A DNA stretch of 64,000 nucleotides from assembly GCA_965178125.1 (NCBI GenBank), contig OZ237735.1, forward strand, positions 1,240,001 to 1,304,000. The letters are read 5' to 3'. Below the pieces are notes generated by a model that saw only the letters and a program-made list of their open reading frames with translations, was not told the DNA's origin and did no database searches. Of this stretch, positions 14,668 through 40,483 are shown piece by piece (position 1 is the first letter of the stretch; each line of letters opens with the position of its first letter). Source of the stretch: Bilabrum cf. latius. Taxonomy: Eukaryota. The position numbers were made by a program, and so were the translations under genes.

Positions 14668-15035
14668 CCGGGTGTGGGTTGCTTTACCAGTGGCAGATCG
14701 CGGGGAACTGCCAGCAATATCTCCTCCCCTCACCCCCCCCTCCCCGCGAAGCCTCGCACCATGGCTGTTGCAGTAAGAGAGTCTCCGGCTCCTGTCACAG
14801 CGACACAACCTGCTTCCCCCCGACCTTGTAGGGGTGGCAGCAAGCAGAGCGGCGAGTCGGAGTAGCAAGTTGCGCAAAGGGGTGGGTTCCCAGTGCAGCA
14901 AGTGGCGCAGGCTGAAGCTGCGTGCGTTGCCGACAAGACAACGCTGAACCAGATCCCGAAGACATCTTGACAGTGGGAGGGGAGTTTTGCCGATTCAATC
15001 AGCACTGTTAGAAGCAGAGCATCAGCGAGTCCAGC

Positions 15036-15617
15036 ATGAGGGAGACAGTGGAGTGGAAGTACAGTGGGGACGGCGCGATGAAGGCGAAGCGCTTCATGGA
15101 GGCGGTGGGCTTCTACAAGCAGGCGCTGCAGAGGGACCCGCTCCACCACGCCATCTACTCGAACCGAAGCATGGCGCTGCTCAAGCTCAACCAGGCCGCC
15201 ATGGCGCTGGAGGACGCCCGCTGGTACAGGCGGCTGGCCCCATGGTCCGTGAAGGGGTGCTACAGGGAGGTCATGGCTCGCATGGCCATGGTGGACTCCG
15301 ACCGCGCCTCGCAGGTCTTCTGGACGGCCTACTGCATGGACAACGAGAACTACGAGACGGCAGAGCTCTTCAAGGAGGCCGTGGCCAAGGCCAAGGCAGT
15401 GCCTGCGAGGGAGCGTGGGGAGTCGGTTAGTGGCAGCGAGGACGAGGACGAGGCCGCGGGCGGCTCAGCGCATCCAACTCCAACTACGCCTGTCCCGCAT
15501 TTCTCGTCTAGGTACTGGAAAACGAGTTCGATCATGAACTCGAGCGTGTCTGCAAGCGTGTCGATGTGCGCGACGGCGACGCCGCTGCGAACCAGTAGTA
15601 CCATCCGGATGTGGTAA
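15036..15617 (+). CDS. TPR-repeat protein (three TPR motifs, STI1-like), possibly truncated or chimeric
   Basis: K..GDGAMKAKRFMEAVGFYKQAL..DP....YSNRSMALLKL..A..ALEDA....LAP.SVKGCYR matches the TPR consensus; ends TAA. Confidence 0.6.
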   Translation: MRETVEWKYSGDGAMKAKRFMEAVGFYKQALQRDPLHHAIYSNRSMALLKLNQAAMALEDARWYRRLAPWSVKGCYREVMARMAMVDSDRASQVFWTAYCMDNENYETAELFKEAVAKAKAVPARERGESVSGSEDEDEAAGGSAHPTPTTPVPHFSSRYWKTSSIMNSSVSASVSMCATATPLRTSSTIRMW

Positions 15618-15648
15618 GAGACCAACGTTGCGTTTCAGAACTAGATAT

Positions 15649-18090
15649 TTACCTCAACCCAAGAAGAAGATCCAGACCAACATCGCCACCCACAGCGTCG
15701 GAAAGCCTAAAATCTTTTCGAGGCCCGAGTCTCCCGTCCAAGTCCAGCACCAGAGCCGGCGGCCGCGTCTCTTGCAGCGTCCCGTCCGGGTACCTGTGCA
15801 TGTAAAAACAGCTCGTTCCGAATGGACACTCGCCCTCGCCCTCCGCAAACAACCTGCAAGGTATCCTGGCCAGGCTCGCTTTGTATTCCTCCACGAGCTC
15901 CCGCTTCCGGCCGGGATGATCTACGAACCGATCGCAGGGCACCACAAAGTGCGAAAGCTCGCGACACACGGGACAGCCCCGCACGGTCTCAGCCGGCAGA
16001 TCTGTTCTAGCCCTCCATGCCCGCGCGCAGTCGATGCAGAGGCAATGCGAGCATCCTGTCAAGATGCCGAACCGCTTGCCCTCGACCACGACCTCGTCGA
16101 AGCATACGATGCACTCGAGGCCCTCGCTCAGCCTTGCCTCTGCCGCCTTCAGAGCGTCCTCTTCGATCCCCGTGGCACGGCCCAAGTCCACTGCCACCAG
16201 GTCTTCGTACGAGAAATCTACTGCACCAACATCGTCCTGACTGGCACCCCCAGTGCACGCAACCTCTGCCCCACGACTTGTGCTGCTCGCAGCCGTGCGC
16301 GGAGGCGCAGGGGTCTTTTCAACGCCCTCTGCAGCAGCACCAGCAGCACCAGTAGCACCCAATGCCGCTTTGCCCGTATGATCGGTATCCTGGCTCGCTG
16401 CCTGGGGAGCTTGCTTCCCTTTCTTTTTCTTTCGTTTCTTGGTGCGTTTGCCCCGCTTACCTCCTCTTGCTCCGTCACCCACAGGGTCAAATCCAGGGAT
16501 GACGCGATGCCCAGATTCGAGCACAGACCGCCTCTAATTGTACTCACCCATCGCCAGTCGCGGCGCGCCCGTCGGAATGCTTGCAGCAGCCCTGGCTGCC
16601 TCATCTGCCTCCCGAGCCGCGCGGCGCTTGTCTTCTGCCTTGGCCAGACGAGTGAGCAAGTCGCGGGTGGCCCGGAGCACCTGCTCGGCCTTTTCCAGCT
16701 ATGCCGGAGACACGTCGGCGTGTCGATACAGGCACGATGCGCCGAAGCGGCAGCTGCCTGCGAGGTAGTGTCTGCAGAGTGGTGTAGTCGTGTCGGTGCT
16801 GGTATGCGCCGTCGACGGGACACCCCGACGCTGCTACCCCCACTGCTGGGTCCATGGCTGGGCACCGCCGGCTTCCATCCCAGGCAAGCCTTCCATCTGT
16901 GCAATGCGTTGCCACGGTGCTAGCGAGGTTCCTGCGGCCAGCCGAGCGGCTGATCCATCCGCCAAGCCAGTCCCTGCGACCGCCCCCCCCAGGCCCTCGG
17001 TGGCGTCAGCTGCGTTCCGCCTCGCCTCATCTCGCTCGATCTCCTCCTCGATCGCCTGCATCTCGGCTTCCTCCTGCTGCTCCTCGGTAGTGTATGCATG
17101 CGCCGGAATGACTGGTCCGCCCATCCCCGCGCCAGCTCGTGAACCCGCACCTAATCCAGCTCCCATGCCCATGCCCATGCCCATGCCGATGCCGTGGCCT
17201 GCCTGTATGAATCCGGCCATCTGCATATGGAATGGTCCGGCAGATATCGGGAGATGCCTTGCACTCCCACTACTTGCACCACCGTGCGGTGCAGCTGCGG
17301 AACTGACCTGTCCTGCCCCCCACGCCGCTGCCTGGGCCTCGTGCTGGCCGTGACCCGCGGACTAGACACCATGCAGAGCCGCGCCCGATTGTCCCGGTAA
17401 AATCTGCTGCTCCTGAGCAGGGGGTCCCACTACTGGTGCAAAACTACCGCTAAAGCCCATGCGGCTGCCGGTCGAGGTCGCGGTGCCAGGGCCTGCCAGC
17501 GAGTGCGGCTATGTTGATGTTGATGGCTGCCACCCCTCTGTGGCACCGGGCGCTGCGGCCTCCCGCCCGCCAAACGGTGCCCAGATAGACCCAGAGGCAG
17601 GTGGCAGCAATTCGGACTAAGCTGTACTCGAACTGGCACTATGATGCTCGCTGTGGTCAGCCGGTGCGGCAGCTGTGATGCCGGCACTACCAGCCGCGGG
17701 CAGTTGCCGTCCAGCTTCCGTACTGCTGCCGAACGGATAATCTATGGAGATGCCACTGCTTAACTTCGGGGCTTCATATGCCGCGTTGCTCTGTTCAGAG
17801 GCGGTGCCGTCACGATCCAGTGCTCCACCGGTTGCCAAACCCTCTACTGACTGATTGGCGGTCGATCCACTGGAAGCTGGCGCTGAAGCTCGTGGTGAGC
17901 TATACTAGTGCAGCCCTGAGACAGGAGGAAGCAAACCAGCCGCTTTGAGCATTGAATCTACGTAATTCAATGCTGAGGCGAGCTTGCGTTTGCGTTCATC
18001 CGCCGAGAGCTCCCTTCGCTAGATTGGACCGCTACCATCTGCTGCACCGGCTGCTCGGATTGTTTGACTCCACCCGCCCTAAAGTGCCAT
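15649..18090 (-). CDS. MKRN: Makorin-type E3 ubiquitin ligase (CCCH + RING + CCCH); TAG read as Gln
   Basis: RING CIVCFD..RFGILTGCSHCLCIDCARAWR..CPVCR; C-terminal PCRLFAEGEGECPFGTSCFYMH; upstream CCCH CRHYLAGSCRFGASCLYRH lies between TAGs 16834 and 16699. Nine in-frame TAG; ends TAA 15649. Start 18090 or 18147. Confidence 0.85.
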
Positions 18091-18224
18091 CAGATAGCGT
18101 CCAACTAGTCCCCCAATAGAGAAAAGGGGTTTCATTGCAATTTGCATCGGACGAACGTTCTCTGCTTGGCGACTCGTGGTTCGCTAGCTCGGTTGGACTC
18201 GCCGCGGCAATTCTAGCCTGAGAG

Positions 18225-21020
18225 ATGAGTTGCACCGACAGTGGCGGTGATTTCGATATACTTAAATACCTTCGGGTGGAGCTGCCCTGGAAATCTGTGA
18301 GATACAATCGCGCAGTTGGTCACTACGGTTTGCCCTTTCATTGTCGTTTGAATCAGTGCATCATTGCACGGCACACCCCAGCGCTGTGTTGCTTCGTCCT
18401 GTCGTCCTAGCAGACTCCTGCATTGGCAGATGGAACTCTTCCGTGGCGCGAAACTTCTGCCAATTCTCGTGTGGTGCGATTTCGGGCGCCGCCAAAGACT
18501 CTACATGACAACTCGAAGCCAAAGGGAGGTCGGCCTTGGAGCTCGCCAGAAGCTGCCCGAAGTGTTGCATTGCGCCAATCTCGGCAGCAGATTGTAGCCG
18601 GCCACCCGACCATGCGTGGCGTGCGATCTACATCTGCGCGCGAGCAAGCGCGATCCGGGGGCCAGCAGGACTTTATCCGTCTCGCGGAGCTGTCCGTGGT
18701 AACAGATGCCTCGCGCACCATGAGGGGAAGAGCGCCAGTGCAGCCGCACTGGACACCACAGTACATGCGTGAACATACTATGGCCCATGTGTCCCGGTCG
18801 GATGCCGTCCCAGTGCGAATTATTGCGAGCAGGCTGCATCGCGGCTCCGCTGCGAAGCACGGCATGGACGAGGCAGACTTGCTGCCCATCGCACCGCACA
18901 GGGCCAGATCGTTCTTCGGGAGGCAACGAGAGGCTACCCCTGGCTCAAGCGCAGCCTAGGGCAAGAGCAGCAGCTCGGCAGCAGAGCCGAATCAGCGGCC
19001 GGTGTCTGCTCCACCCAGGCCACGACGCGGCATGGCTAGCAGCGACGGCGGCAGCTCCACGATCCGCACTAAAGGCGGGTTCTATCAGTTTGGTAGTGAT
19101 ATTTCGTACGGCGGACCAACGTTCCCAGGGGCGCACGCGGCGATGGGAGGTGGCAGGCCGCCAGCAACTGCCCAGCGCTCCGTTGGCGCCACAGAGGCCA
19201 ACCGGCTGGCACCGGACTGGGCGGGTTCCCGGACCCTCTCTTCGGAGCGCGGTGACGGCAACGCAGCAGATCGCTTGCATGGGGCCAAGGAGGGTGATGC
19301 TGGCCTAGGCTGGACGACGTCTGGATGGATCGGCGGCGGGCCCCCTGCCCACGTGCAGATGGGCCTCGAAGCAGAAGCAGCCCTGGGCCCGACCAAGGGC
19401 ATGCCGTACCCACCGAGCCCACTGGAAGCCGTGCCTGGCTCGCTGTCTGCGTCCCCTAGCCCCAGCCGAGCGGACGCATCCACGGTGGCTAGCTCCAGCC
19501 CAAGCCCCTCGCGCGCGGTTGCAGGCGCAATGGGCAACCGGGCCGATGCAGCCGGGAGTCCTTCAGCATCGTAGCCTGCCCTCTCCGTGGCTTCCGGGGC
19601 ATCGGAACCTGCGACACTCTCCAGCAGCGCATCAGCATCTGTGCCAAGCGAACCTACTGCCTACGGCAGTGCAGGGGCGGCCGCAACGGGTCCCAATGCC
19701 AATGCAGACAGGCCAGCTGGGCCAGGGTCAGGCAGGCCACGGCCGCTGGAAAGCACGGGGAACCGCACTGCCGCGCCGCACGAAACGCACCACATCACGC
19801 CCCTGGGCAGGGGGCTGGTCGCAGAGCCCAGTATCCAGCGCTTCGGCCGCACGCGCGATTTCCGAGGCAGTCTGCAGGGTGCCGGCGCGCTGCACCGCAC
19901 TGCAGTGCACTCGTCGCCCGTCCATAGCCTAGAGGGACCTCCTGGAGATAGTAGCGGCCAGACGCCCGCTCCTGGAGACAACGCGACTGAAGCTCCCGGG
20001 ACCGGCCCGCAGGCGCCGTCCGCCACCCTGGTGTCTCTGTAGCGAGAGGCCGAGCGCCATGGGTAGCTGGCTGCGAGGGCCAGGCAGCGCGCGCAGGAGG
20101 CCGCGCGGGCTGCTGCGAGGGCTCGACAGGCGCTGGCTGCCGGTGAGCAAGGTGCGGGCGGGCCTGGTCGACTTGGGGCAGCACCCGTACCAGACCCAGG
20201 TGCTGCCGCCCGGGAGTGGGCCGAGGGTGTGCGTGCGGCCAATGCTGCGGAGGGTGCGAGGCGCGCTGCATCGGCGAGGGCATCGGCGATCGCTCGGGAG
20301 ATGAGGGATCGAGAGAGGGCGGCATAGATGCATCGCACTGCAGCGCAGCGCCTGCGCAAGGTGGAGAGGGACTGGCGCAGCGCTGGGCTGCCCGGCAGCA
20401 GCTCAGGCCAGGCGCCCGCCTTCCCAGGTGCCCTGGAGCCGATGGCCCGCGCGATAGAGGGAGGCGGAGCCATGCAGCGGACGGGGGATGCACGGGAGGC
20501 TCTCGGTGCCGCGCACCAGGCCCTGCGTGCAGCGGAACATGCATCGGAGCGGCTCCGGATGAGTCTCTCGGACCGGGCGGCGGCTCGCGTCGAGGCCGAG
20601 GACGAGGCGCTCCGGCGGCGGGCGACGGCCGGGCTAGTGGACGCGTGGGCGGAAACAGCGGCAGCCGGCGCTCGAAAGGCCAGGGAACACATGGAGAGGG
20701 AGCGGGCATGGGGCGAGGCCGCCGCGCGATCGGATCTGGGCGTGCGTCGCCTGGACAGAGAGGCGGCCGCAGCCGCTGCTGCCACCGGTCGATGGCGCGG
20801 GCACCAGCTGCTGGCCCAGACGCAAACGGTTGCAACCAGGAGGAGTCGAGCGGCCGCTGCTGATGCAATGTGGGTGCCCGCGGCGGCAAGCATACCCGCC
20901 CTGCACGACAGGCATTGGGGGGCCGGTTCCGGGGCCGGGCCCGGGAGGCCTCTTCTGAAGCGGTCCACGAGCAGCGCGGCGTGGAGGGACCACGTGAGGG
21001 CGCTGGTGGGCGGCCGCTGA
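18225..21020 (+). CDS. Hypothetical low-complexity/coiled-coil protein (~930 aa); TAG read as Gln
   Basis: ORFs 18225..18410, 18423..18959, 19002..19574, 19587..20042 and 20328..21020 are co-framed, joined only by TAG; ends TGA. Start uncertain. Confidence 0.6.
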
Positions 21021-21387
21021 TTTCTAGCCTAATCAATTTTTGTTGTCGTTTGGAACGTTCCATGACGTGCCGCCTGCTTGGTTCTTGGGCCTGACCCTCC
21101 CTGATGACCAACGAAATCCGCCGGCTCACTGGCAGCTCCGCACAGTGACTGGCGCGCGGCGCCGGCGAGGATCGATCACCGAATCTTGTGGAACATTACA
21201 CGCCTGCCTTGGCTGCTACGCTGGCTCATTGATTCACAAAGTCAATTTTCTGGCGTTGCTTCAGGCGATTCAACAGTCACACCGTGAGTATTATGTGTTG
21301 AGTGGTATCCTGAGGAAGTGGTAGTGTGTAGTGGAGTGCCGTTCAGTCCCACCGACGCATGCCACCGTTCGCATTTTGCCCACGATT

Positions 21388-23865
21388 ATGCAGGTCATGG
21401 GGCTGTCTGATCTATTTGTAGATCCAAGCGATTTGCCTGAGGATGGATACGGGTTCGTTCAGCTCGTCTTCCTCATGATGTGCTACGGTTATGTCCTGGC
21501 TACATCATCCAACTGGATTGCTGATGGAAGTGAGGAGACTGCGAAAAGCAAGCGCTGTGCATATCGATATTGCGCTAACATCTATTCGCGGTGCTATGAC
21601 CATGTGTTGCTCATCGTGCCGTGCTGTGCTGCTTCAAGTTGCACCCATCTACCCTCCTCACCCAACGCCCTCCATTTGGAAACAAGCTTTTCCCTACACT
21701 TTACCGCAGGCGAGCTGCTTCTTGCTGTTCTTGACCCTGGAATTATTGGCGGGTTTCTGCTCCCAGTGATGGGCGCGGTGCCCGACGCGGCGATGGTCCT
21801 GTTCAGCGGCCTCGGCCCGCAAGAAACAGTCCAAGAGGAGCTTTCCACGGGCCTCGGAACGCTGGCCGGCAGCACCATTATGCTCCTCACGATTCCGTGG
21901 AGCCTATGCACGTACACTGGGCGGGTAGACCTCGTCCCGAAGTCGCAGCTGGAGGATGGCCCGGGCGGAGATTCTGCCGGCGAGCTCGTTGCCGCCTACA
22001 AGAGGCCCAAGAGCAAGAAGTTGACCAAAGTCTGGTACGATTTTGCCGGTACCGGCACGCAGCCGGACAACTCCGTGATGACTCCGTCGGCTGTGATCAT
22101 GCTGATGACGACGGTCAGCTACATCATCATCCAGGGCCCTTCGTTCAAGTTCCAGACCTACCACAACGAGAAGGAAGAGGCGCAGAAAGAGGGCGTGTTT
22201 GCTCTCGTCGGGTTCATCCTGTGCATAGTATTCTTTCTTGCCTACAGCATCTGGCAGGTGTTCTCCCAGGACGGGCAGACGGTCCAGGCGGAAAAGAGGA
22301 ATGCTCGGATGAAGGAGCTGGCCAAGGCAGGTACCCTCTCCATCGACGCGATCCTATCGTCGCAGGCCTTTGCCGCGGCATCTGCGGCCACGGGCGGCAG
22401 CTCGAGCTCGGACTAGCTGCTGGCGGGCCAGACTGCGCAGCTTGAGGGCGCCCTGTCCCGCCTGAGCCCCGGCAACCGGCAGGCTGTCCTGACGTACGTC
22501 AACACGCTCTTTGACCGCGTCCAGGGTCTCGTGGTCAGCGACGGGAAGGTGGACGCGGTGGAAGCAGAAATCATGTTTCGCTCGCTGCTGGGGCGCGAGT
22601 ACCTGGATCCCTCCAAGCAGCTTCCCGTGAATGTGGAGGAGCTAGTGGCAGAGTATGCCGCGATCGACGAGGGCCATCATCATGCCTCGGTCGAGCAGGA
22701 GAGCAAGACAGCGGGTGCGTCGGCTCCCGGGCGGGGAGAGATGCCCTCCGCGGCCGTGGGTATCGTGGAGGATGGGGAGGGCGCGAAGCTCAACCGGGAT
22801 CAGTTCGTGCACATGTTCGTGGACTGGTACTCGGCCTACTTGCAGGAGCATCCAGAGAGGGCAGCAGCGGCCTCCGGCGGCTGCTGCGAGGCCATCGGCA
22901 GCTTTTTGTAGAAGCTGCTGTGCGGCTGCTTCCGATCACCCGCTACATCGGCTGCTGGGTCGGGCGGGGGCGGGCTGCAGTCCACGGCCACGGCTGCGAA
23001 TCTCGAGTCCACGCTGCGCCGCAAGCAGACCTCGAGGCAGGCGAGCCGTGTCGGTTCCAGGGCCGGTTCCTTCGCTAGTCCCGGTGCTGAGTCGTTGAAC
23101 GGACCAGGTGCTGCCGCTGCCTCGTCGCGGGCGGGCGGGGAGGCAGACATGGCAGAGAGCGCCATGCGGCGAATGGCTGCCGACCGCGGGGTGGTGCAGG
23201 CCATCTCAGACAGCACGTCGGATCGGCACCTCCGTGGCGTCGAGGGCGTGACTCACCTGGCTGACGAGCATGTGACGTACGACGATGCGGAGGATGACGC
23301 GGAGGGTGCTGGTGGTGAGGAAGAGGAGGAAGAAGAGGAGGAGGAGGAGGAAGAGGAGCCCGGGGCCAACATGACTCGCACTGAGATCTTCGTGAAGTCT
23401 TTCTCTCTCATCCTCGTGGGCGTGGCGGTGGTGACGCTGTTTTCGGACCCCATGGTGGACGTGCTGGCGGCCATGGGCAAGCGGCTGCACATCAAGCCGT
23501 TCTACGTGTCCTTCGTCGTGTCTCCGATCGTGTCCAACGCGAGCGAGCTCATCAGCAGCCTGGTGTTCGCCAGCAGGAAGAGTCGCAAGACCATTACGAT
23601 GACGTACAGCACCCTCATTGGAGCCGCCATCATGAACAACACGTTCGTGCTTGGCGTTTTCCTCGCCCTCGTCAAGTTCAGGGGCCTGGCGTGGACGTTC
23701 AGTGCCGAGTCGACGAGCATCTTCGTGGTGGAGCTAGTCATGGTGTGGTTTGCGACCAGGCATGTACAGTCGGTGCTCGTTGGCTCCGTGGTGGTAGGTC
23801 TGCTTTTCCCGCTGGCCATTGTTCTCGTGGCTGTGCTGGAGAGCAAGGCAATCGGCTGGGACTGA
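21388..23865 (+). CDS. Na+/Ca2+ exchanger-like (NCL/EF-CAX type) membrane protein with EF-hand-like loop; TAG read as Gln
   Basis: Removing intron 21530-21709 restores DGSELLL. Alpha-repeat motifs MGAVPDAAMVL, GTLAGSTIMLLT, PIVSNASE, GAAIMNNT. Two TAG (22414, 22909) link the co-framed ORFs; ends TGA. Confidence 0.9.
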
Positions 23866-24078
23866 AGTAGAACCTGCTGCTGAGGGCACGCAAGACGCCG
23901 GCGGGCTTCGCCGCTCGAAAGGTGCGCCAATCGTCGTGGAGGGAGCTTGCGCTTTAAAATTGCTTGCACGAGTACCGACGGGATTTCTCTCGTATAAGTT
24001 AGTAGTTTTCGGTCACGGGGATCAATCGCTCCGGGTCCAAGGTTTGGATGTCTTTGCTTGCACATTCCGGTGGCCCAA

Positions 24079-25782
24079 ATGCTCAGGCGCGCGGTAGCTC
24101 GTACAAGCATCGCGCTTCATTTGCGCAGGGCTCAACGCTTGCAAGCTTCGCAACCATGCAGGTGGAGCACGAGCGACTTGCAGAAGCAGTTGCAGTAGGC
24201 GTGCGGGGGCGATTCGACAAGTGTCCTCGCAGATTCTGGAGATTTGAAGAAATATTCCACTGACTGGACAGGTACATTAGAAGGACAGGCCCGATTTGTG
24301 GTCAGACCGTCCACCACAGAGCAGGTACAGGCTGTGGTCGATGTATCCCGCCGCAATCAGCTGTCCATCATTCCGCAGGGCGGCAACACAGGCTTAGTAT
24401 GCGGATCAGTGCCAACTAGCACTGAAATTGTTCTCAGCCTAGAGAGAATGAACAAAATTCGTAGCATTGACCCTGTGTCAGGTGTTATAGTGGCTGAGGC
24501 GGGCGTAGTTCTTAGCGATCTGGACGAAGCCCTGCAGGCACACGAGTTTTGTGCTCCTGTTGACCTAGGAGCAAAGGGAAGCTGCCAAATAGGTGGTAAT
24601 ATTGCTACAAATGCGGGGGGCTTGCGATTTAAGAGATATGGGAGCTTGCATGGGACCGTGCTGGGCGTGGAAGCAATCGCAGGATCAGGTGAACGGCTGG
24701 ACATGCTTTCGGAGCTTCGCAAAGACAACACTGGGTACAGCGTTAAGGATCTCTTTATTGGTTCCGAGGGAAGCCTTGGTGTAATCACTGCAGTTAGCAT
24801 TGCTGCTCCGCGTTTGGCCCCCGTGCGCCAGGTGGCTCTGCTGGCCTGTCCCTCGTGGGAGGCCACTCTCTAGGCGCTGCAGTCTGCCAACCAGAAGCTG
24901 CAGGGCATTCTGTCTGCCATTGAGTTCTTCGATGCTGCAAGTATGGAGGTGCTGATGGGCTCTGATCGCCCGTTCGTTGTGCACCGCGTGCGGCAGGCAG
25001 ACGGCGACGAGCCGCCCACGTACGAGGAGGACGCGAGGGTTGCAACCAGCCTGGCACCGAACGAGCCGAGAGTCAGCGGGGTACGAGACCCGCTAGGAGA
25101 GCGATATCCGTTCTACGTGCTCGTTGAGACCCGCGGCGTCCGCAAGGACCACGACTCTGAGGTCCTCGAAGATTTCCTGTCGTCTGCTCTCGCGAAGGGT
25201 ACGGCGGACACGGGCGTCTTTGCCTCCAGCGAGGCCGAGGCGGACGAGCTGTTCGCCATTCGCGAGGGAATCACCACCGCCCTCACTGCGAGGGGTCCTG
25301 TACTGAAGTTTGACCTGTCCTTTCCCCGCACCCGGGACATGTACGGCCTCGTGGACTAGGCGAGGGAGTGGCTGCATCAGAGCACGAGGCAGCACGGCGT
25401 GATTGCGTGTGGGTACGGGCACCTCGGCGACAACAATCTGCATCTGAACGTGAGCGTGCCGAAAGGGGCAGGAATTGACGGCGGCATGGAGTGCAGGGAA
25501 CAGATTAAGGCAGCAGTGTATGACAGGGCGCATGCATGGACCGCGGCGCGAGGCGGGTCTATCAGCGCAGAGCACGGGCTGGGCACGTTGAAGAACCAGC
25601 TGCTGCCGGCCATCAAGCCGCGACCGGTATTGGAGGTAATGCAGCAGCTCAAGGCAGTGTTTGACCCGGACAATATCATGAACCCGGGCAGGGGCGTGCT
25701 GCATCCGGACACCCCTTTCGACGAGGCTGCCGCGGAGAGCTTCAGGAGTGCACTTGCCACAGAGAAGGAAGCAATGTCATGA
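24079..25782 (+). CDS. D2HGDH: D-2-hydroxyglutarate dehydrogenase, mitochondrial (FAD-linked oxidase); TAG read as Gln
   Basis: Motifs PQGGNTGLV, DLGAKGSCQIGGNIATNAGG, LRKDNTGY, FIGSEGSLGVIT, YGHLGDNNLHLN, GSISAEHGLG, FDPDNIMNPG in one frame across TAG 24196, 24871, 25357. Arg-rich transit-like N-terminus; ends TGA. Confidence 0.95.
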
Positions 25783-25896
25783 CAAATTGCGATAGAAGTC
25801 CAAATCACAAAAACGCTGTTCAATAACAAGGCACTGTAGTCCCATACCACACATAAAAAGATCGAAGTCACGAGCCCATGAGCACGTGCAACGTCA

Positions 25897-28800: not shown

Positions 28801-31335
28801 TGCAACGGCGTCGCTTTGGGCCTCCCCCTACCTGCCAGTTGCGTCATGCACGCCCTCACTAGCACCAATCGGGGTGGACATCACAACCGCTGGACCGGTG
28901 GTGATGTGGTAGATGCCAGAACCTTCGCTGCCGTCTGATGTTGCGACTGAGAGCATGGAAAGGTCGGACATGCGGTTGGGCCGCGATTCGTGCGCTCCGC
29001 CCTCGCGCCCCGCATCGCGCTTATTGCTGTCGCTCAAGCCGCGCACCAGCGGGGTGTGCTCGTCGTCCACATCGCTACCGCTTCCATCCTTCTCCTCCTC
29101 CTCCTCCTCCTCCTCGTCATCATCAGCCCCGCCCTCCTCGCCCTCCGAGTCATCGCCATCTCGCAGAGAACCCCCGGCGAGCAGGCTGTCCAGCAACGAG
29201 TGAGGCGCCGACTCGGGCTGCTTCGGCTGCTGTAGGTGCTACGAGCTGGCGGGACTCTCCTGGTTGCCTGCACTCGTCCCCTCTGTCGCCGCAGACATGG
29301 ACGCTGCCGCCACTGCGGAGGCCGACAGGGGATAATCCAGTTCCTCTTCGGTGTCCTGGCCGGCGGTGCCATCAGCTGCACTGCCAGCCAGCTCAGCAGG
29401 CGTCGAGACTCCCGTGGAATCAAAAGCATCGCTGTCGTGAGTCTGTGTCGTGGCTAAAGTCGCATCTGTTCCACGTCGGCTGACGTGGTGGCGAGGCCCC
29501 TCCCGTGTCCGACCAGGTGCAGCCAGGCCGCTCTGTGCGGCAGGCCGTCGCGCCTGCCTTCGCCTCGTGGCTGCCGCGCTGCGCTCGCTTGCACCTCCAA
29601 CTGGCAGCTCTTTAAGCCCACAGGCCGACGAGGAAGGGGCTTTCGCGTCAGACAGGCTCGCGAAACGGTAAAAGTACGGGTCGGCCGAAGAAGCGAATCC
29701 GAGATCCTGAGTGGGCACGTCGTGCGCGGAGACAAGCAGCACGTCGATGCTGCACCCGCGGGGCGGACGCACGTCCGTCGTCACGTTGATAACGCGCTGA
29801 ATGCCACGTGCCTCGAGCGCGGGCACATTATGCGCGGCCCGCTTGTCGCCGATGTACAGCCCTTCGCACACCCTGACTGGCAGCCCAGTGACAAGCTCGA
29901 TGCCAGCGCGGCGCTGCAGGTCCTGGGGAACACGAAGCAGCGGGTTGCGTTCCAGTTCAAGGACAAGGAGCCCCTAAAGATCCGCAAGCGCGTCGGGAAG
30001 CCTCTTGAGGTCATTGTCATTCGCTTTGAGCGTGGCAAGGCCGGTCAGCCCGCTGACAGTCGGCAGGATTTCCGACACCTTGCACCCTGAGATGTCGACG
30101 TACTGCAGCAGAGGCAGTTCTAGGCAGCCGTTGTTCCACTCAGCGCCGTCTCTGTCCCCATCGAAGTACGCGCACTCCCTCCCTCCCCGCTCACTCTGGC
30201 TTGCTGACCCCACCATCACCTTCCTTCGTCTGCTGAGCAGCCATGCAGGAGCCACGGGGGGGAATACTGATATCACGTTCTGTCTCCAGCGGGAGCTGCG
30301 ACCCCCCCGAGAATGCCTCGAGCTGACCGAAGCCGACCTGCCTCTCTCCCTCCCTAACCCAAGCCCTCGCCCACCTGCCCCCCCGGTCCCTCCGCCGCCT
30401 GCCAGAGCGTGCGAGGATGAGGACGACATGGTGCTATCGAAGGGCAGGAGCCCTCTACCAGACACGTTGTGGCCCCCATAGACATGAATTTGCGTCCCTG
30501 GCACTGGCGGGGCAGGCAGCTCGGAGGGGTGGAACGCGGTCTGCCTGTCGGAGTAGGCAGTGAGCAAATCGTCTCCGAGGTGCGGACGGACCTTGCGGGG
30601 CCGGGGTCCCCGCTCCCAGAACCCTGCACCAAGAGGGTTGCATTGAAGTTCTAGTCTTCGGAGGGATGTGCATGCCCACAACTCACCGGGCAGCTCTCTA
30701 AGGTTGTTGCTGCTGGCGTTCAGCGCCCCCAGCCGAGGCAGCAAGAACAGTTCCCGTGGCAGCTGCTCCAGCATGTTTCGGGACAAGTCCAGCGTCCGTA
30801 GCTATGCTTGCAACATAAATTGTGGCAGTACTGGGGCAGCAGACAGATGCGTAGAGGCCCGGTGCTCAGTCCTAGGAGAGAGCAGATTTATAGCCGAGAC
30901 TCCACCATGGTGCAGAGAGAGTTCCGAGGTAGGCAACGCACTGCTGGGCAAGCTGAGGCGAGCACTGCTAGACTAAATGTCTATCTCTTGCAAACCACAC
31001 CCGTCGAGACGAAGTTTCCTGAGGGACGTATTCTGACTGAGAACGTCCCTCAGCGTCCCAGGAGTAACACCATCACTAGAGCTGCGCAACGGCGATTAGG
31101 AGATAGTTAACAAGACCCTCAATAGTGGGCGAGACAAGTCGTACGTGCGATATCACGGACACATAGGAGCTGTTTAGCTGTTTTCGACACGTAAAGCGGC
31201 TCACTTGCACAGCGAGACAATGTCAGGCTTGCCATCGCCGCTTAGTTGAGCGCCGTTGGCAAATAACGACCGGCCCTGGTTGGGCAGAGCTAAACCATAC
31301 TCGAACATGTAACCATCCTAAATACCTGTTGCCAT
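25897..31335 (-). CDS. Leucine-rich-repeat + dual-specificity protein phosphatase; TAG read as Gln
   Basis: Seven co-framed ORFs joined by ~13 TAG. LRRs include LDLSRNMLEQLP and LPDALADL*GLLVLELERNPL. DSP motifs LYIGD..A, VINVT, HCVAGLSRSAT, PNLGFFRQL. Intron 31082-31204 (GTGAGC..CTAAT..GCAG); TGA 25897. Start 31308 or 31335. Confidence 0.85.
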
Positions 31336-31534
31336 ACAGCCGCTTAAGGAGCTCTCTATGTCACGAGAAAGAGTTTCCTCGATGTCAAGTAACGTGTGCT
31401 TTGTCAGCGACGGAACCGATTTGTGGCATCGAACGGCTCGACAGGCGTCAATCGAACAGAGAGAATCCCATCCGCGAAAGCCGCGTACATTGGAGTAGGT
31501 GAAGCTTAATAACTAGTCTTAAACTGATATCGCG

Positions 31535-33668
31535 ATGTCGTCTCGTGGATTCTTGTTCGGTAGCGGTTCCAGGACGAGGGGGTCTGATACCAGACGAAAT
31601 TTGCGATACGGCCAGGCAAGCACAACAGGAGGTAGCAGTGGCACTAGTGGAGCTTCTGGGCGATATGGATCATCCCCTCAACCGGGCGGAAGGGGCGTTG
31701 GGTCAAGCAGCAGAGGTGAATCGGGTACTTCTCGAGTTGGTCGATTGGGTGGTGCAAGACCAGCAGCAAGCAACGGGAGCGGTACAACCCGCCTTGGATT
31801 GCCTTCGCACGAACCAGGTTCCTCAAAACCGCTTCGTGCAGCTGCTAGCTTTCGTGTCGACGCGAGGTCTCCGACGTCGGTTGGATCTGGCTCCCCAGCA
31901 ATGGGCAGCATGTCCAGCTCAATGAAGAGGGCGGCATCGTTTCGGGACCGCGACATATCGAGGGGTTCTGGATCTGGGAAAGGCTCTGACATTGGTGGCG
32001 CAAAGCCTGGATTGTTTCGTAGTGGCACCAGCCGCTCTAGAACGCTAGGCGCTGCCTCACGTACCGCGTCGGGTCTAGGTCGCGGAACCGGGGCCTCTGG
32101 CAGCGGGGCAGCCTCCGGCAGGGCAGGGACTGCCAAGGGGGGATCTAGGGGCACAGGCTATCGCGCAGATCCCGGCGGGTCATCGTCTGCAGCAGCTTCG
32201 AAGAAGCGAGCAGGCGGTCTCGGTTCGAGCAAGGCGACGGGTGGAAGTGCTGGTACAGCTGCGAGTAGCCGATCGGGTCGTGTGACGGGCGCTGGTGGCA
32301 CTTCGTCAGCTGCGGGAGACAAGGCGACCGGTGCGGCAGGAGGGAAGGCATCCACGGCTACGAAGGGCGGCCTTGTTCGCCGCTCCCAGCTCGACTTTTC
32401 CCTTCGTGACCTCCGCTTAGAGAAGACGGTGGGCACCGGCACCTTTGGCAGGGTCCGGGTGGTGTTCCACCGCAGGAAGAAGAAATATTACGCCCTCAAG
32501 ATACTAAAGAAGAGCGAGGTGATCCGCCTGAAGCAGGTGGACCACATCAGGAACGAGATCAGGATCATGAGCTGCGTGGACCACCCCTTCGTAGTCAACC
32601 TCGTGGGCTTCATGCAGGACCGCAAGAGGATCTACATGCTGCTGGAATACGTCCCCGGGGGCGAACTGTTCACTCACCTGAGGGCCGTGGATAAGTTCAG
32701 CTCGGACGCGGCGAAGTTTTATTCGGCCGAGATCGCGCTTGCGTTCGAGTACCTGCACAGCTTCGACGTCATCTACAGAGACCTCAAGGTGAGAATGTGT
32801 CGGCGTCGCGATTCCCCCCGCCCTCACCCTTTCCTCCCACGCGCGGGCCATGTGGTCATCAGTTGTTTTCTCGTGTGTGCTGCCCCACGCTCCCACTCTA
32901 TCAGTAGTTGCTGCTTGCCACCCACCCCCCTCCCAAGCGACGCAGCCCGAGAACCTGCTCATCAGCAAACGCGGGCATATCAAAATCACCGACTTTGGAT
33001 TTGCCAAGGTCGTGAGGTCAGGTGATGCGACGTACACTCTCTGCGGAACACCAGGTGAGATACTATATTCGGTGACTGGAGGGCTCAAGTCCACTCGAAG
33101 ATTTGCTTGCTACGATCTACACAGCTGCTTCGTCAAGATTGTGCCAGGGCTCACCGCCCTCCGTTCCTACCCGTCGAATCCACTCGCACCTCTTCGACTT
33201 GTTGCAGAATACCTAGCCCCCGAGATCATCCAGAGCAAGGGCCACGACAGGGCGGTAGACTGGTGGGCGCTTGGCATCCTCATCTACGAGATGCTGGCAG
33301 GATACCCGCCCTACTTTGACGAGAGCCCTTTTGGAATCTACCAGAAAATCCTCGCCGGGAGGCTTAGTTTTACGAGGGATTTCTCGGACAATGCGAGGGA
33401 CTTGGTGCGCAAGCTGCTGAATCCAGACAGGACTCGAAGGCTGGGCTGCCTCCGGGACGGCGCCGCCGACATCAAGCGCCACCGGTGGTTTGCTAGGGTC
33501 AGCTGGGACGGGGTGAAGTCTCGCAGCATACCGCCCCCTTTCATCCCGAAGGTCTCCACGGACAACGACACGACGAATTTCGAGGACTACAGCGATTCGG
33601 ACGACGACACGGCCCGGGAGCTGTCGTCCAAGGAAGCCAGGCTCTTTGCGGACATGGACGACTTTTAA
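31535..33668 (+). CDS. cAMP-dependent protein kinase catalytic subunit (PKA-C/PRKX-like) with ~290-aa Gly/Ser-rich N-terminus
   Basis: GTGTFGRV, IRLKQVDH, YRDLK|PEN, DFGFAK, TLCGTP|EYLAPE, DWWALG, C-terminal F..F. Introns 32789-32945 and 33055-33207; ends TAA; no in-frame TAG. Confidence 0.95.
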
Positions 33669-33902
33669 CTCAGCTTCCCTCAGGATCCAAGGTATTGCCT
33701 CGGTGCGAGTGGCGCTTGCTTGCTGGTGGCTGATTTGGGGGTTTGCACGTGCGTTCGTGTGCCGTGGCTTCATTGCATGTGTGCGAAAAACCCCGGGCAT
33801 TGCCCCACATGGTATGAGAGACTGCTTGCATCGGTCAGGAACTTGATATCCACACTTCTTGCAGAGCAAAGCATGCTCGCTGCAGGCACCACCGGCAATC
33901 AA

Positions 33903-34951
33903 TCACAGCATGAATCCAATATCATCGTTCCGCGCACCGTCCCCAAAGTACACCCCCCCGAACTGAGCGGACCTCGCCTTGTGGAAGGCGGTGTATCCCG
34001 GCCACACGAAGCTTCGGAGGGTGGCTGTCCCTGTTGCTGCATCGAACCTTGCGCTCCAGCACCCCTTCGGCTGGTCCTCTGCCAGCGAGTCCATGAACTC
34101 GACGTCCTTCACGAGGTCTTTCTTCTCCAGGGCGCTCTTGGCCTCGAGGCCGGTGGCGCGCCTGAAGTGCAGGTAGGACGAGGCCTCCCCCGCCTCGGAG
34201 CCGCTCAGCCCCGCGAACACAGCATTTGGCTGCACCGTGCCCTCCGCCGAGAGAATAAAGGCCCCTCGTGGCACCACTGCGCAATCGTGGTCGATCTAGG
34301 CGACAACGTGGGCCAGGCGGTGGAACTCGCGGAACCGGATGGGCTTCGGCTTGGCGGGCAGAGGGTTGCCATCCTCGTCCTCTTCCGGCTCTTCGTCTTC
34401 CTCATCCTCCCCGTCCTCAGCTGCGACACGAAAAAGCAATCAAAAGTATAATTGCGCTCTAGTTGTCAGGAAGGCTTGCATATTGCCTAGCGCTTCGGTC
34501 CGGATACACCAACTCACCATCAGGTCCAAGAAGCGCGGTTGGATCGCCTTTGAAAACACCCTTCTCCGCAGCTGCCTTGGTTTCAAACTCTTCTGTCATG
34601 TCGGGGAAAGCTTGCAGCTCGTAAGCCTTCGTTGTGCTGCGAGAGTGAGTGGTGCACGAGACGGAGATCTGGACAGGATGGCTCATCCGGCCACCAACCA
34701 ATCGATGCGCTTGCAGTTTTCCGCCCTCACCATGCGTAGAACTACTTTCGTGGATAATCCATGGATGCGGGGTATCCAAAACAAATTAAATAATCTGCCT
34801 CCTCTCCAGTGATTCGGCCCCAAAGTAGCATCGTCTATAAATCCTCCTCGACGACACGCTTTCTCATCGCAGTCTGGAGGCCAGCTCTCTCCTCTACGCT
34901 GAGAGTTCTACCAGTTATTTCAGACATCTTCGGGAGTAAATCTAAATCCAT
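33903..34951 (-). CDS. RSPH9: Radial spoke head protein 9; TAG read as Gln
   Basis: Motifs LWGRITGEEADYLI, FKGDP, RLAHVVA*IDHDCAVVPRGAF, LRSFVWPGYTAFH, YFGDGARNDDIGFML. Introns 34421-34517 and 34637-34730; TAG at 34835, 34742, 34296; ends TGA. Confidence 0.92.
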
Positions 34952-35083
34952 CGTTTCCGCCTACAATCGGTGGACTGCACCTCACAACGGACACTGTGGT
35001 GGTTCCGTGTGCTTTGGACCAAATATCGGATTCTGGCATGCCCCCAATCCGCTCAAGTGTGAGCACTTGCTTGTAGGGTTTAT

Positions 35084-36820: not shown

Positions 36821-36944
36821 TGTGCATGCATTTTTTTAAATTACCTTTGAAGTTGCGATGCTTTGCTTGTCTACTGGAACACTGCCAGCTCCGGGTCCGT
36901 TGGGGCGTCCAGGTGCAACTCCGTGCGTGGCACATCAATCGCTC

Positions 36945-39900
36945 ATGTTTCAGGGCGGAGCAGAAGTAAAACAACTGAGAAATGAGAATACACAGCTACG
37001 CAGGCAATTGGTTCACTTGTCCGAAGAGCTCATTGATTCGGGAGAGCAAATAAACAGATTGAAGCGGAAGGTCCGAGCTCTTGCCGGAGCAGGAGATGCA
37101 TCACCAAAGTCGCCCGCTGGAGTATCCCCAACCAAGGTGGCAGAGAACGATGCTGACCCTGGGGCCAAAGAATCTTCGAAGCTAATCAAGGCGCTGGAGC
37201 GGCGCGTCGCAGAGCTCGAGGCCGAGTCGGCACGAGCGCATCAAATAGCAACCAAGCAATCGGAAGACTTGATTTAGGCAGATCGGCGGTCACAAAGTGC
37301 ATCAGCCCAGATTCGAGAGCTAATGGCGCTGCTTGCCGAGGTTGGCGTCGACCCTTCGTCGGGTACGAAGACAAGTGATGGCGAAGCTAGCAGCAGCAAT
37401 GCCCCAGAGCGGATTGCTGTCGCCAGTTAGAAGCGCATTGGCGCAAACAGAGTGCCAAATTGCAGCCTATCAGACCGTCCCACCACTGTGCGGATCCAGC
37501 GGGATTCTCCACTTGCTGCTGCGTAGCTCAGTCACGCCAGCGACCGCCTCGGGGACTTCCTTTCATTCGCAGAGCGGAGCGCGGAGGCGCTCGAGCAATA
37601 CGTATCAGCAGGCGAATAGTTTTCTCGCGCTGGTGCACAGGTATCGACTCTTTTGCGCACCTCTCGCTACCAGCCGTGGGCGGCAGAGGTGCCGGGCTTG
37701 TTCGAGGGCCTGGCGGCGGTGGCAAAGTTGCAGCAGGACCAGAGCAGCTACTTGGAAGTGATGGTTCAGTCCATCAGATAGGCGTACTGCGAGCCCATCG
37801 TGGCGTTTGCGCAGGCCCGGGCCAGCAGAGTCCAGAAAGCGGTGGCAGCTGCGGAGCAGGCCAGGCAGGAGGCCAGCAGCGCGACCTGGAGCTTCCTGTG
37901 CACCTCGTCGAGCGCGGGTCACGATGCCGCGAGGAAGGCTGAGGAGGAAGCAGCGGCTGCGACAAGGCGGGCAGAAGCGGCTCGATTTGACGCCGTCCGT
38001 TTGCTGAACGAGGCCGAGCTGAGCAAGCGAGCCGAGCTTGGGGAGAGGCTGTGCGGGGTGTACTACGCTTTGAGGGCGTACGGGCAGCAGATGCACCTGT
38101 CCGTCTCGAGACTGGAGGCGACCACTCGCGCCCTGCAAGCAGCTGCGGCACAGGCTTCGACTCTGGAGAAGGAGCGGGCCGTGGTGTGGCGGCAGCTCGC
38201 AGCCGCCATGCATTCCGAGCTTGGCAGGGCGTTCACGACGTCGGGACAGGCGCGGGCGGGCGTGACAGAAAGAAGGAGGATGCCAGGTGCGGTGCAGGGG
38301 AAAGGGAAGAACGGCTCGGGCAAGGGAGGGGAGGCGGGGGTGGGCGATGGGGAGGCCGCAGGCAAGCCGCGCATGACTGGCGGCATCGGGGTTGGGGACG
38401 GTGCGGGCTTGGACGAGGCGGGCAGTGACATTCCCGCTGGCCCGCTCGACCTGGTGAATGAGGTGGTCGAGTCAGTCGCGGCGAGAGTCAGGGAGCAATT
38501 GGAGGAGGATCAGGGGGCTGCTGCCTCATCCGAGCAGCCGATCAGCAGCGGAAGAGGGCAAGGCCGCGGGCCGGACGCCACGAGCGGTGTACCTGCCAGT
38601 GCCACCGCTGCCGTTGCTCCCAATGTGACACCGCTCAGCCCCGGGCTGACGAGGGCAGCCGTTGGCTCGCTGGCCTCTGCTGTCGCGTCGAAGCCGCAGC
38701 CGGCGGCAGGAGCGACAGAGGGCGCCAGAGGGCCAGACCAAGGGGCAGAGAAGAGCGACTCTGCGGGGTCAGCACCCGGGGGGCCCGCCTCTGGATCCGG
38801 GTCTAGCGCTGCACACGCCAGCGACTCGATGACGGGGGGCGACGCAAGCCGGGCCGATTTGGGCGGCTGGCTGTACAAGCGGAGCAGTCGTCCGATCGGC
38901 GTGAGGAGGGCGGATTGGCAGCGGCGGTGGTTCTTCGTGGACAAGGGTGCGCTGTGGTACGTGAGGGGAGAGAAGGACTTGAACCCCGTCAAGGTGCTGG
39001 ACATGGTGGTGGGGAATGTGCGGAGCAGCGATGCGGCAGACGCGTCGTCTCCTGCGCACGACGTGCGGTTCTGCTTCGAGATTCGCACGCCCGGCGAGAG
39101 GGTGTTCTACCTTCAGGCGCCGTCAGCGAGAGAGAGGCAGAAATGGGTCAGCGGGCTGCGGAGGGAGTCCGAGAAACAGCTGCTCGCGGCGAAGCGGGCG
39201 AGCACATCGGGGGGATCAGGCGCCGGTGGTGGCCCCGCTGGCGACGGCAGCGACGGCTCCGTGGCTGCTGGCCAGGGACAGTCCGCCTCTGGGTCCGGGG
39301 GCTCTGGCGGTGACACGGCGAGCGGACGGGGCAACTTGGCGAACGATCCCCGCGTGAGGGCGATCCAGGAAGCAAACCCGAGGTGCTGCGATTGCGGGGC
39401 CGAGCGGCCGGACTGGTGCAGCCTCAACCTGGGTGTGCTGCTGTGCATCGCGTGCAGCGGCGTGCATCGGTCGCTGGGGACTCACCTAAGCAAGGTGCGG
39501 TCGCTGACCCTGGATGCTCTTGAACCCAGGGTGCTAGAGGTGCTAGAGGCCGTGGGAAACGATGCATTCAACGCCGTGTGGGAGGGTAGCACGCAGGAAG
39601 GGTGGCAAAGGCCCGGGCCCAAGGCGCCGAGGGAGGAGCGGGAGCGTTTCATTCGGGCCAAGTACGAGTGGAAGGGGTTCGTGAACGTTCCTTCGCTAAG
39701 CCGATCGATCGCGCGGAGGGCCACAGGAGGTGATCCCAGCGGTGGAAGCGGGTTGGAAGAAGGGGCGGAGAGCGAGGGCGAGGGGGAGGGGGACGGTGGC
39801 GGTGACGGTGACGGTGACGGTGACCTGAGTGGTGGTGCTGGGCCTGGTGCTGCAAGGTGGGGAGGAGCCGGGGGCAGCGCGGGTGATGGAGAGGAAAAAG

Positions 39901-40262
39901 GGGGAGGCGATGGGTCGTCTGGAGCCAAGAGCTCTGCCGCCGTGGCTCAGGACTAGAAGAAGCTGGCCAAGTCGGCACTGGCGGTGGCAGCCAGAGCATC
40001 GGGCGACGGCGATCTGCAGGCATTGCTGGAGTGCGCTGCTGCCGGGGCTGATTTCGAGCAGCCCGTTGAAATTGTTGAGGGGCAAAGCGCCACAACTGCG
40101 TTGCACGAGGCAGCGAGGGGCGGGCATGCGGTTGTCGCGGAGTGGCTGCTGCAGAACGGGGCCAGAGCTGACGTGCCGGATGGGGAGGGCAGACTGCCCG
40201 CGGCGGTGTGCGAGTCCGCGGGACATGCCGATCTAGCAGCGATGATACGAGCAAGACAGTAA
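36945..40262 (+). CDS. ACAP/AGD-like Arf GTPase-activating protein (coiled coil-BAR-PH-ArfGAP-ankyrin); TAG read as Gln
   Basis: One frame with TAG at 37275, 37428, 37524, 37617, 37779, 39954. BAR start DSPLAAA*L; PH GWLYKRS..WQRRWF..RFCFEI..LQA.S..ER.KW; Arf[32 protein letters not shown]; ankyrin TALHEAA; ends TAA. Confidence 0.92.
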
Positions 40263-40483
40263 TACGTTTATTGCATTCATGTTATACTCGTGTGCCCAGT
40301 TGACTGCCAGCGAATGAGGCGTTTGCAAAATGTGTTGCGACCAGCCTTCTAGCAGCACGCCGGCTTCCTGTTTTTGCGAGGCGCCGCGAGCGTTCCGGCC
40401 GACAGGTTCCGCACGACGCAGCGCATCGACCCAGTCGCTTCACGTGACCGGCTCGGAGGCGCGCAGTCCGCGATATCTGTACA

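Follow-up and report, generated by a model that had tools for sequence, protein, structure and literature searches.

In nuclear genomes the codons UAG and UAA are almost always reassigned jointly, and each case in which they are uncoupled bears on stop codon discrimination by eRF1 and on how genetic codes evolve. Codes in which both codons (UAR) specify glutamine are used by many ciliates, hexamitin diplomonads, some ulvophytes, Streblomastix and Amoeboaphelidium protococcarum (PMC5304391, PMC6299283). The first organisms with uncoupled meanings were described in 2017, namely, the rhizarian exLh, in which UAG encodes leucine, and Iotanema spirale, in which it encodes glutamine (PMC5304391). 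Later cases of UAG-only reassignment include Scotinosphaera (serine), Protocruzia tuzeti and several phyllopharyngean ciliates (PMC11687900). Here we analyzed a 64-kb stretch of DNA of Bilabrum cf. latius (contig OZ237735.1, positions 1,240,001 to 1,304,000; hereafter the window), in which TAG acts as a sense codon and TAA and TGA remain terminators. The original prediction, made from the letters of this stretch, had set the uncoupling of UAG from UAA against most nuclear reassignments, in which both codons change. Its novelty was overstated, as UAG-only reassignment with UAA and UGA as stops has been published since 2017 (PMC5304391, PMC11687900).

The window represents nuclear DNA from a GC-rich, intron-poor eukaryote, with a GC content of approximately 60%, few introns and about 20 genes distributed over both strands. 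Its longest open reading frame (ORF) under the standard code has 798 codons, and with TAG as a sense codon ORFs reach up to 2372 codons. When TAG was read through, 20 long ORFs totaling 18,898 codons contained 134 in-frame TAG and neither TAA nor TGA, in agreement with the earlier statement that no TAA or TGA lies inside exons. In the same stretches, each of the remaining five frames contained 34 to 78 TAA, 126 to 165 TAG and 168 to 353 TGA. Thus, TAG is not depleted in frame, and TAA and TGA are excluded. No ORF of at least 1000 codons was found under the standard code or with TAA as a sense codon; seven were found with TAG as sense and one with TGA as sense. In block-shuffled sequence with TAG as sense, the longest ORF did not exceed 834 codons across 20 shuffles. 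In-frame TAGs were present inside the Pfam domains of D-2-hydroxyglutarate dehydrogenase (D2HGDH), Sua5, NADPH oxidase, BAR and leucine-rich repeat (LRR) proteins. A codon-usage test of coding potential that ignores stop codons, a test of low power, detected coding signal on both sides of 20 TAG, no TAA and 1 TGA.

We then aligned contigs of four public sequencing runs (X5, X7, X8 and X9) to positions 14900 to 34899 of the window. X5 and X7, which come from two studies, were taken as RNA solely because their contigs lack seven GT..AG introns, neither run being recorded as RNA. These spliced contigs were identical to the window, with the seven introns removed and no other letter different. The joints, given as the last base before and the first base after each intron, are 21283-21394 and 21529-21710 in the Na/Ca-exchanger gene (plus strand), 31081-31205 in a gene encoding an LRR and dual-specificity phosphatase protein (LRR-DUSP, minus strand), 32786-32944 and 33051-33205 in a PKA-like kinase gene (plus strand; GT..AG in two runs), and 34420-34518 and 34636-34731 in a gene similar to that of radial spoke head protein 9 (RSPH9, minus strand). 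Twenty-one of the 36 in-frame TAGs of this 20-kb stretch were present unchanged in the listed spliced contig pieces, and two of the other 15 are probably noncoding, one located in an intron (21322) and one upstream (21025). The contig covering 24116-25805 spans all three TAGs of the D2HGDH gene without a difference, and that covering 16234-17892 holds six TAGs of a makorin-like gene, again without a difference. Therefore, these TAGs are not introns, editing sites, or sequencing or assembly errors.

Two relatives display the same pattern. The X8 and X9 runs represent a relative that is approximately 8 to 9% diverged in DNA; the counts that follow draw on 40 of the 1,789 differences in the run alignments. 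In the region of the makorin C terminus (15718-15916), all 13 listed differences fall on third codon positions (chance, 6e-7), and in the TPR gene (15049-15546) the same is true of 15 of 27 listed differences, to the relative or to a second allele (p=0.014), with insertions at 15492/15493 totaling 6 nucleotides. A more distant relative is represented by L001, a 4,966-bp metagenome contig that is syntenic with the window, with a D2HGDH gene convergent with an LRR-DUSP gene, and that is 65% identical in the best tblastn segment and 67 to 72% identical in other D2HGDH comparisons. L001 has 7 in-frame TAG and no TAA or TGA in 1,463 codons; its D2HGDH gene ends at TGA and its LRR-DUSP gene at TAA. 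One TAG, at D2HGDH residue 41, is common to L001 and the window. That both relatives share the pattern indicates that the code is a trait of their clade rather than a strain oddity.

A standard code disguised by pseudogenes, assembly errors, unrecognized introns or U-to-C RNA editing would have nothing in its favor beyond the prior rarity of code changes, and it is extremely improbable. Across 21 TAGs the spliced RNA of two studies does not differ from the DNA, the divergence restricted to third positions (13/13) shows purifying selection, and two independent relatives display the TAG pattern as well. Thus, the RNA contigs, the ORF statistics, the boundaries of conservation in one relative and the recurrence of the pattern in another are independent lines that agree in supporting TAG as a sense codon, with TAA and TGA as terminators.

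An observation of another kind was made in the TPR gene region. Between 15049 and 15546, X5 and X7 contain a second allele at approximately 45% of the RNA depth (48 of 103.7 at position 15049), and its letters at the differing sites are those of the relative sampled in X8 and X9. Such a second allele points to a genome that is highly heterozygous or of hybrid nature, or to a culture of mixed strains.

We next considered how genes end. TAA had been proposed to terminate the TPR (15615), makorin (15649), PKA (33666) and BAR-PH-ArfGAP-ANK (hereafter ArfGAP; 40260) genes, and all four TAA codons were found in these places. The announced number of about 14 further genes ending at TGA was also recovered, as 13 long ORFs plus the spliced RSPH9-like gene, and the coiled-coil gene previously described as PPP1R21-like does end at a tandem TGA-TAA (54973..54978, minus strand). 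The PKA stop was said to follow directly on a conserved C-terminal FxxF motif: the position of the end is right, and a strict FxxF is absent from the tail (...LFADMDDF), whose last four residues are MDDF. In the homologue alignment the C terminus of this protein matches PKA and TPK1 and ends at most 3 residues from the end of yeast TPK1.

If TAA were used relative to TAG as CAA is relative to CAG, 47.7 in-frame TAA would be expected, against 0 found (P=2e-21), and adding TAA to the sense codons lets the top ORFs grow by no more than 40 codons. Reading through the PKA TAA leaves the frame open for 260 codons, up to the next in-frame stop at 34449-34451, so that translation would pass the end of the RNA contig (33818) and enter the convergent RSPH9 gene. 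Similarly, reading through the ArfGAP TAA adds 187 codons, up to 40826, and enters the NADPH-oxidase gene. In the close relative, the ArfGAP protein P0121 (841 aligned residues, 93% identity) terminates at the residue at which the protein of the window terminates.

Conservation boundaries coincide with these ends. The alignment to the X8 and X9 relative breaks off at 25784 in both runs, 2 nucleotides past the D2HGDH TGA, starts again at 25888, 9 nucleotides beyond the LRR-DUSP TGA, and has a piece that ends at 33674, 6 nucleotides past the PKA TAA. All three gene ends testable against this relative are thus at TGA or TAA, the remaining ends being assigned from the ORFs; the description of the organism as amber-free is supported in part. 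Three of the four TAA ends are backed by the ends of homology or of conservation. TAA is a real terminator in this organism.

An alternative is that both UAG and UAA specify glutamine, with TAA rare through the high GC content and TGA as the only terminator. UAR=Gln is the commonest eukaryotic variant code (PMC5304391), and of the stop triplets in the window TAA has the lowest counts (193 and 175 on the two strands). We nevertheless consider this alternative highly improbable here. No UAA was found in frame as a sense codon in the 18,898 codons of the window or in the 1,463 codons of L001, against the 47.7 expected in the window and the 34 to 78 TAA of each off-frame; the TAA sites coincide with the ends of homology or conservation; reading through them yields tails of 187 to 260 codons that run into neighboring genes; and the L001 LRR-DUSP gene likewise ends at TAA.

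To which amino acid TAG corresponds was addressed in several ways. A number of public proteins (P0001, P0121 and P0176 to P0188) are fragments of the clade's genes, cut at TAG by gene calling with the standard code. Those that stem from close relatives, with 90.8% identity over 2,412 aligned residues, cover eight TAG sites of the window and carry glutamine at five, lysine at two and glutamate at one, these being the three residues that are one first-position change away from TAG. P0121 has glutamine at both TAG sites that it covers. In the coiled-coil gene, P0182, P0183, P0187 and P0188 cover three TAG sites, with glutamine at two and glutamate at one, and all four fragments end exactly at TAG sites of the window. 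More generally, of 10 close-relative fragments examined, P0121 aside, 8 could be aligned to their very end, and each of these 8 terminates precisely at a TAG of the window, indicating that these TAGs are conserved. The 5:3 split between glutamine and lysine or glutamate fits synonymous TAG/CAG exchange plus some replacements. The empirical log10 likelihood over the eight sites is -6.5 for glutamine, -12.1 for asparagine, -12.6 for lysine and -13.1 for glutamate, a margin of 5.6 log10 units between glutamine and the next residue.

The surroundings of TAG point in the same direction. Within 3 residues of TAG sites, 63 of 789 neighbors are glutamine (1.94x), close to the self-enrichment of glutamine (1.87x), and around the other 19 residues the corresponding values range from 0.65x to 1.34x. 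None of 2000 random site sets reached 63 glutamine neighbors (mean, 32.6; standard deviation, 6.1), and the enrichment was robust to the omission of any one ORF (1.70 to 2.10). A likelihood based on neighbor composition over the 20 residues placed asparagine, methionine, glutamine, histidine and leucine within 4 nats of each other, with lysine, glutamate and serine 11 to 15 nats worse than glutamine.

Homology to more distant proteins was less discriminating. Summed over six TAG-containing Pfam domains, bit scores were 339.7 for lysine, 337.6 for glutamine, 336.0 for glutamate, 332.0 for serine, 323.1 for tyrosine and 313.1 for leucine. As judged from these domain models, the sums reject leucine and tyrosine, disfavor serine and leave lysine, glutamine and glutamate unseparated. 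Leucine lies 24.5 bits below glutamine, and no relative has leucine at a TAG site; serine lies 5.6 bits below and occurs at no site in the close relatives. In an alignment of 120 D2HGDH homologues, the TAG columns are occupied by I/V/L/M, by K/Q/R and by E/D, with no consistent residue, and most PDB alignments either missed the TAG sites or placed them opposite variable columns (Q/K, D/Q, D/A/R/P, T/S, K/K). The residues in close relatives, the neighborhoods of TAG and the domain sums are consistent in pointing to a polar residue, with glutamine preferred. Considering the sequence comparisons as a whole, TAG most likely encodes glutamine, which we regard as probable; lysine is unlikely, and the other residues are less likely still.

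Our overall interpretation, in which we have fairly high confidence, is that UAG is an ordinary sense codon, most likely for glutamine, and that UAA and UGA have remained terminators, as in NCBI translation table 15. Nearly all of the genes carry UAG in frame in their mature mRNA. Several observations weigh against it. The ORFs were delimited by TAA and TGA, so that the zero counts of these codons in frame are partly circular, and the TPR TAA is the weakest of the four TAA ends, the relative's contigs stopping about 30 nucleotides short of it. As to the amino acid, lysine scores 2.1 bits above glutamine in the domain sums, two of the eight sites in close relatives have lysine and one has glutamate, a TAG near the C terminus of the aspartyl-tRNA synthetase (AspRS) pairs with lysine in both aligned homologues, and the TAG at D2HGDH residue 41 (24196-24198) lies in a column occupied by I/V/L/M in 110 of 120 homologues and by glutamine in 1. 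Finally, TAG is in excess near gene ends, with seven among the final 25 codons of 17 ORFs, where 3.0 would be expected (p=0.034).

Some of these points would suit a sense codon for lysine or glutamate, namely, the three nonglutamine residues in close relatives, the near-equal domain sums of lysine, glutamine and glutamate, and the AspRS homologues; furthermore, L001 pairs TAG sites of the window with K, Q, R and E. Such an assignment is nonetheless quite unlikely. Of the five sites with glutamine, four have identical aligned flanks and the fifth has a single mismatch, and in the same alignments lysine never pairs with glutamine (0/69) nor glutamine with lysine (0/106). The likelihood prefers glutamine over lysine by 6 log10 units. 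TAG sites do not cluster with lysine (1.0x, compared with 1.84x for lysine with itself) or glutamate (0.94x, compared with 1.58x) at any scale, and they do cluster with glutamine.

The excess of TAG near the ends bears on whether some genes stop at this codon. The ORFs concerned end at 14667, 25897, 36820, 45353, 48332 and 54819. The excess could reflect genes that end at TAG, former TAG stops that are now read through, or glutamine-rich tails. In the second case, a TAG located shortly before the current stop may mark the former stop, with translation now continuing to the next one. The claim that no gene must end at TAG agrees with the data and is weakened by this excess.

A context-dependent code, in which UAG is mostly sense and terminates near mRNA 3′ ends, in the manner of stop codons in Condylostoma, karyorelict ciliates and Blastocrithidia, would account for the seven late TAGs, some of which lie 4, 5, 11 and 15 codons before TGA. 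It would also agree with the short appearance of the 3′ untranslated regions, such as that of D2HGDH, whose RNA contig ends 23 nucleotides after the TGA, and with the fact that Thermus AspRS ends within about 2 residues of the C-terminal TAG of the window's AspRS. We regard it as improbable in view of the following observations. In the LRR-DUSP gene, 15 codons separate the last TAG (25942) from the TGA, and they still align to the relative; this conservation argues for read-through there. The L001 D2HGDH gene has a TAG 15 codons before its stop, followed by a short tail that the TAG-free ortholog of the window parallels loosely, as compared by eye from the translations. TAG is as frequent in frame as off frame, and glutamine-rich, low-complexity C-terminal tails would by themselves raise the density of TAG if it encodes glutamine.

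For UAG as a glutamine codon with UAA and UGA as stops, a mechanism can be proposed by analogy. Cytoplasmic translation reads UAG, most likely as glutamine, at approximately 15% of glutamine codons. The decoding tRNA would be a tRNA-Gln with a CUA anticodon, unable to pair with UAA, as proposed for Iotanema, and its simplest origin might be a mutated copy of tRNA-Gln(CUG). In parallel, eRF1 would have lost or weakened its recognition of UAG and kept that of UAA and UGA. The tRNA and eRF1 steps are carried over from PMC5304391; the window contains no tRNA gene and encodes no eRF1. The eRF1 N-domain positions named by Panek et al. are in the GTS (Thr32 among them), NIKS and YxCxxxF motifs, together with E55, S70 and Leu69, and in Iotanema the GTS motif carries a T32G substitution (PMC5304391). 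The pairing of a CUA-anticodon tRNA with an altered eRF1, which the original prediction offered for this organism, had already been set out by Panek et al. in 2017 (PMC5304391).

The identifiable products of the window are ordinary proteins of eukaryotes, namely, a C2H2 zinc-finger protein, a TPR protein, a makorin-like CCCH-RING protein, a Na/Ca-exchanger-domain protein, D2HGDH, LRR-DUSP, a PKA-like kinase, RSPH9, a BAR-PH-ArfGAP-ANK protein, an NADPH oxidase, a mitochondrial-type AspRS and Sua5, together with several low-complexity or coiled-coil proteins. Given the presence of D2HGDH, mitochondrial-type AspRS and RSPH9 genes, the organism has mitochondria and cilia genes. An ARAGORN scan detected no tRNA gene in the 64-kb window, and an Rfam scan of the same stretch had no match.

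The first ORF, at 1..7116 (minus strand), extends beyond the edge of the window; it encodes an ankyrin/TRAF-zinc-finger protein of 2372 codons with 20 in-frame TAG, assigned by Pfam and matched by the relatives' fragments P0176 to P0181. On the minus strand at 11345-13045, a 566-codon ORF without a family match contains a direct repeat of about 50 residues twice (SDARTVISARDF...TVGATY); it overlaps the plus-strand ORF 12505..14667 and is probably not a gene. The TPR-domain ORF (14916..15617, plus strand; Pfam TPR_BSK1_C at residues 38-109) ends with TAA at 15615-15617. It converges with the makorin-like gene (15649..18261, minus strand), which has a CCCH + RING + CCCH arrangement by Pfam, contains 10 in-frame TAG and ends with TAA at 15649-15651.

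The Na/Ca-exchanger-domain gene (20998..23865, plus strand) was assigned by Pfam; it has introns at 21284-21393 and 21530-21709, supported by spliced RNA joints in two runs, and ends at TGA. Its TAGs at 22414 and 22909 are within RNA contigs, and the TAG at 21322 is intronic. The D2HGDH gene follows at 23998..25782 (plus strand; Pfam, and PDB 6lpn with E=4e-111), with in-frame TAG at 24196, 24871 and 25357 and a TGA end. The convergent LRR-DUSP gene (25897..31095, minus strand; Pfam and an RNA joint) contains 12 in-frame TAG, ends at TGA-TGA and has one 5′ intron (31082-31204). Such convergent pairs are tightly packed: the stops of the TPR and makorin genes are 31 nucleotides apart, those of D2HGDH and LRR-DUSP are 114 nucleotides apart, and the RNA contigs of the latter two genes abut or overlap (ends at 25805 versus 25801 and 25814).

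The PKA-like AGC kinase gene (31523..33668, plus strand; Pfam Pkinase) has three exons, no TAG, and TAA at 33666-33668. Convergent with it is the RSPH9-like gene (33903..34951, minus strand; PDB RSPH9, E=1e-4), with 3 exons, 285 codons, 3 in-frame TAG and TGA at 33903-33905; the presence of an RSPH9 gene means that the organism builds motile-type cilia. The next ORF, at 35063-36820 (plus strand), is of unknown function; it encodes a (His-Glu)n stretch followed by four Asp-TAG repeats (DXDXDXDX), and one TAG precedes its TGA by 4 codons.

The ACAP/AGD-type BAR-PH-ArfGAP-ANK gene (36840..40262, plus strand; Pfam and PDB ACAP1) contains 6 in-frame TAG and ends with TAA at 40260-40262. It is followed by the NADPH-oxidase/ferric-reductase gene (40448..43825, plus strand; Pfam), with 1 in-frame TAG and a TGA end. 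On the minus strand, the bacterial/mitochondrial-type AspRS gene (45353..48331; Pfam tRNA-synt_2, E=1e-92; PDB human mitochondrial AspRS) has 7 TAG in its ORF and ends at TGA. The coiled-coil ORF (54976..59055, minus strand), identified by ORF calling, has 13 in-frame TAG and the tandem stop TGA-TAA at 54973..54978, and no Pfam family matched it. The Sua5/YrdC threonylcarbamoyl-AMP synthase gene (60372..61865, minus strand; Pfam) carries 1 in-frame TAG, inside the Sua5_C domain, and ends at TGA.

The affiliation of the organism was examined with the same genes. A quick LG+G4 tree of D2HGDH, built from 42 rows out of 120 listed matches, grouped the window with L001 on a long branch (0.95), and among these 42 rows it gave no affiliation of the two with fungi, green algae or oomycetes. 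Named matches of the ArfGAP protein were from animals, Dictyostelium and zoopagomycete fungi, with 28 to 41% identity, and a lookup in the ESM Atlas returned only generic kinase clusters. For one neighbor, Rigifila was the sole organism named among the cluster members. An aphelid (Amoeboaphelidium) origin was a further candidate, raised by the algal-metagenome runs and the two diverged alleles. It is conceivable, if rather doubtful, that the window, the relative diverged by approximately 8 to 9% and L001 together represent a clade of aerobic, flagellated, GC-rich nonciliates that has gone unreported for UAG as glutamine with UAA and UGA as stops. Should this be the case, the clade could be the first tractable nonciliate system for the study of a UAG-decoding tRNA and the accompanying eRF1 changes. 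In the literature searched, which left subscription journals mostly uncovered, we found no GC-rich nonciliate genome with this code beyond the cited papers.

Panek et al. 2017 were unable to look for the predicted CUA tRNA, as a genome was lacking for both of their organisms (PMC5304391). Unlike exLh and Iotanema in 2017, the clade considered here has a genome assembly and RNA data. For this organism, assembled DNA is available, along with spliced RNA data of two or more studies and sequences of two diverged relatives, so that the tRNA, eRF1 and the age of the code change are directly testable. As gene callers that use the standard code fragment the clade's genes, their annotation needs table 15.

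The organism thus has a real and apparently clean UAG-only reassignment, of a kind known since 2017, and the reassignment itself will count as already known if the lineage proves to be a described one. Ciliate macronuclear DNA is AT-rich and often consists of gene-sized chromosomes, and the window, with 64 kb, about 20 genes on both strands and 60% GC, looks unlike it. The code itself is nevertheless shared with some ciliates, since in Protocruzia tuzeti and phyllopharyngeans UAG is glutamine and UAA is unchanged, as in table 15, with several independent origins (McGowan et al. 2024, PMC11687900). In the UAR=Gln codes (table 6), UAG is glutamine as it is here, and UAA is a sense codon, whereas in the window it never occurs in frame and ends four genes. 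Condylostoma, karyorelicts and Blastocrithidia resemble the present case in that a standard stop codon is abundantly used as sense; their codes contain a codon without a dedicated meaning, whereas two dedicated stops remain here (PMC4967479, 10.1101/2022.04.12.488043).

Among nonciliates, Scotinosphaera (Ulvophyceae) also has a UAG-only change with UAA as a stop, but there UAG is serine (Li et al. 2021, via PMC11687900), and the D2HGDH tree does not group the window with green algae. The exLh lineage (Sainouroidea) shares the uncoupling of UAG and UAA in a nonciliate nuclear genome, the residue there being leucine (PMC5304391). A closely similar system is that of Iotanema spirale (Fornicata), in which UAG alone has changed to glutamine, UAA and UGA are stops, and the same mechanism was proposed (PMC5304391). 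Iotanema is an anaerobic metamonad represented by a transcriptome, with UAA as its primary stop (PMC5304391), in contrast to the present organism, for which there are genes for mitochondrial enzymes and a genome assembly that is GC-rich, and in which TGA is the predominant stop (14 TGA against 4 TAA).

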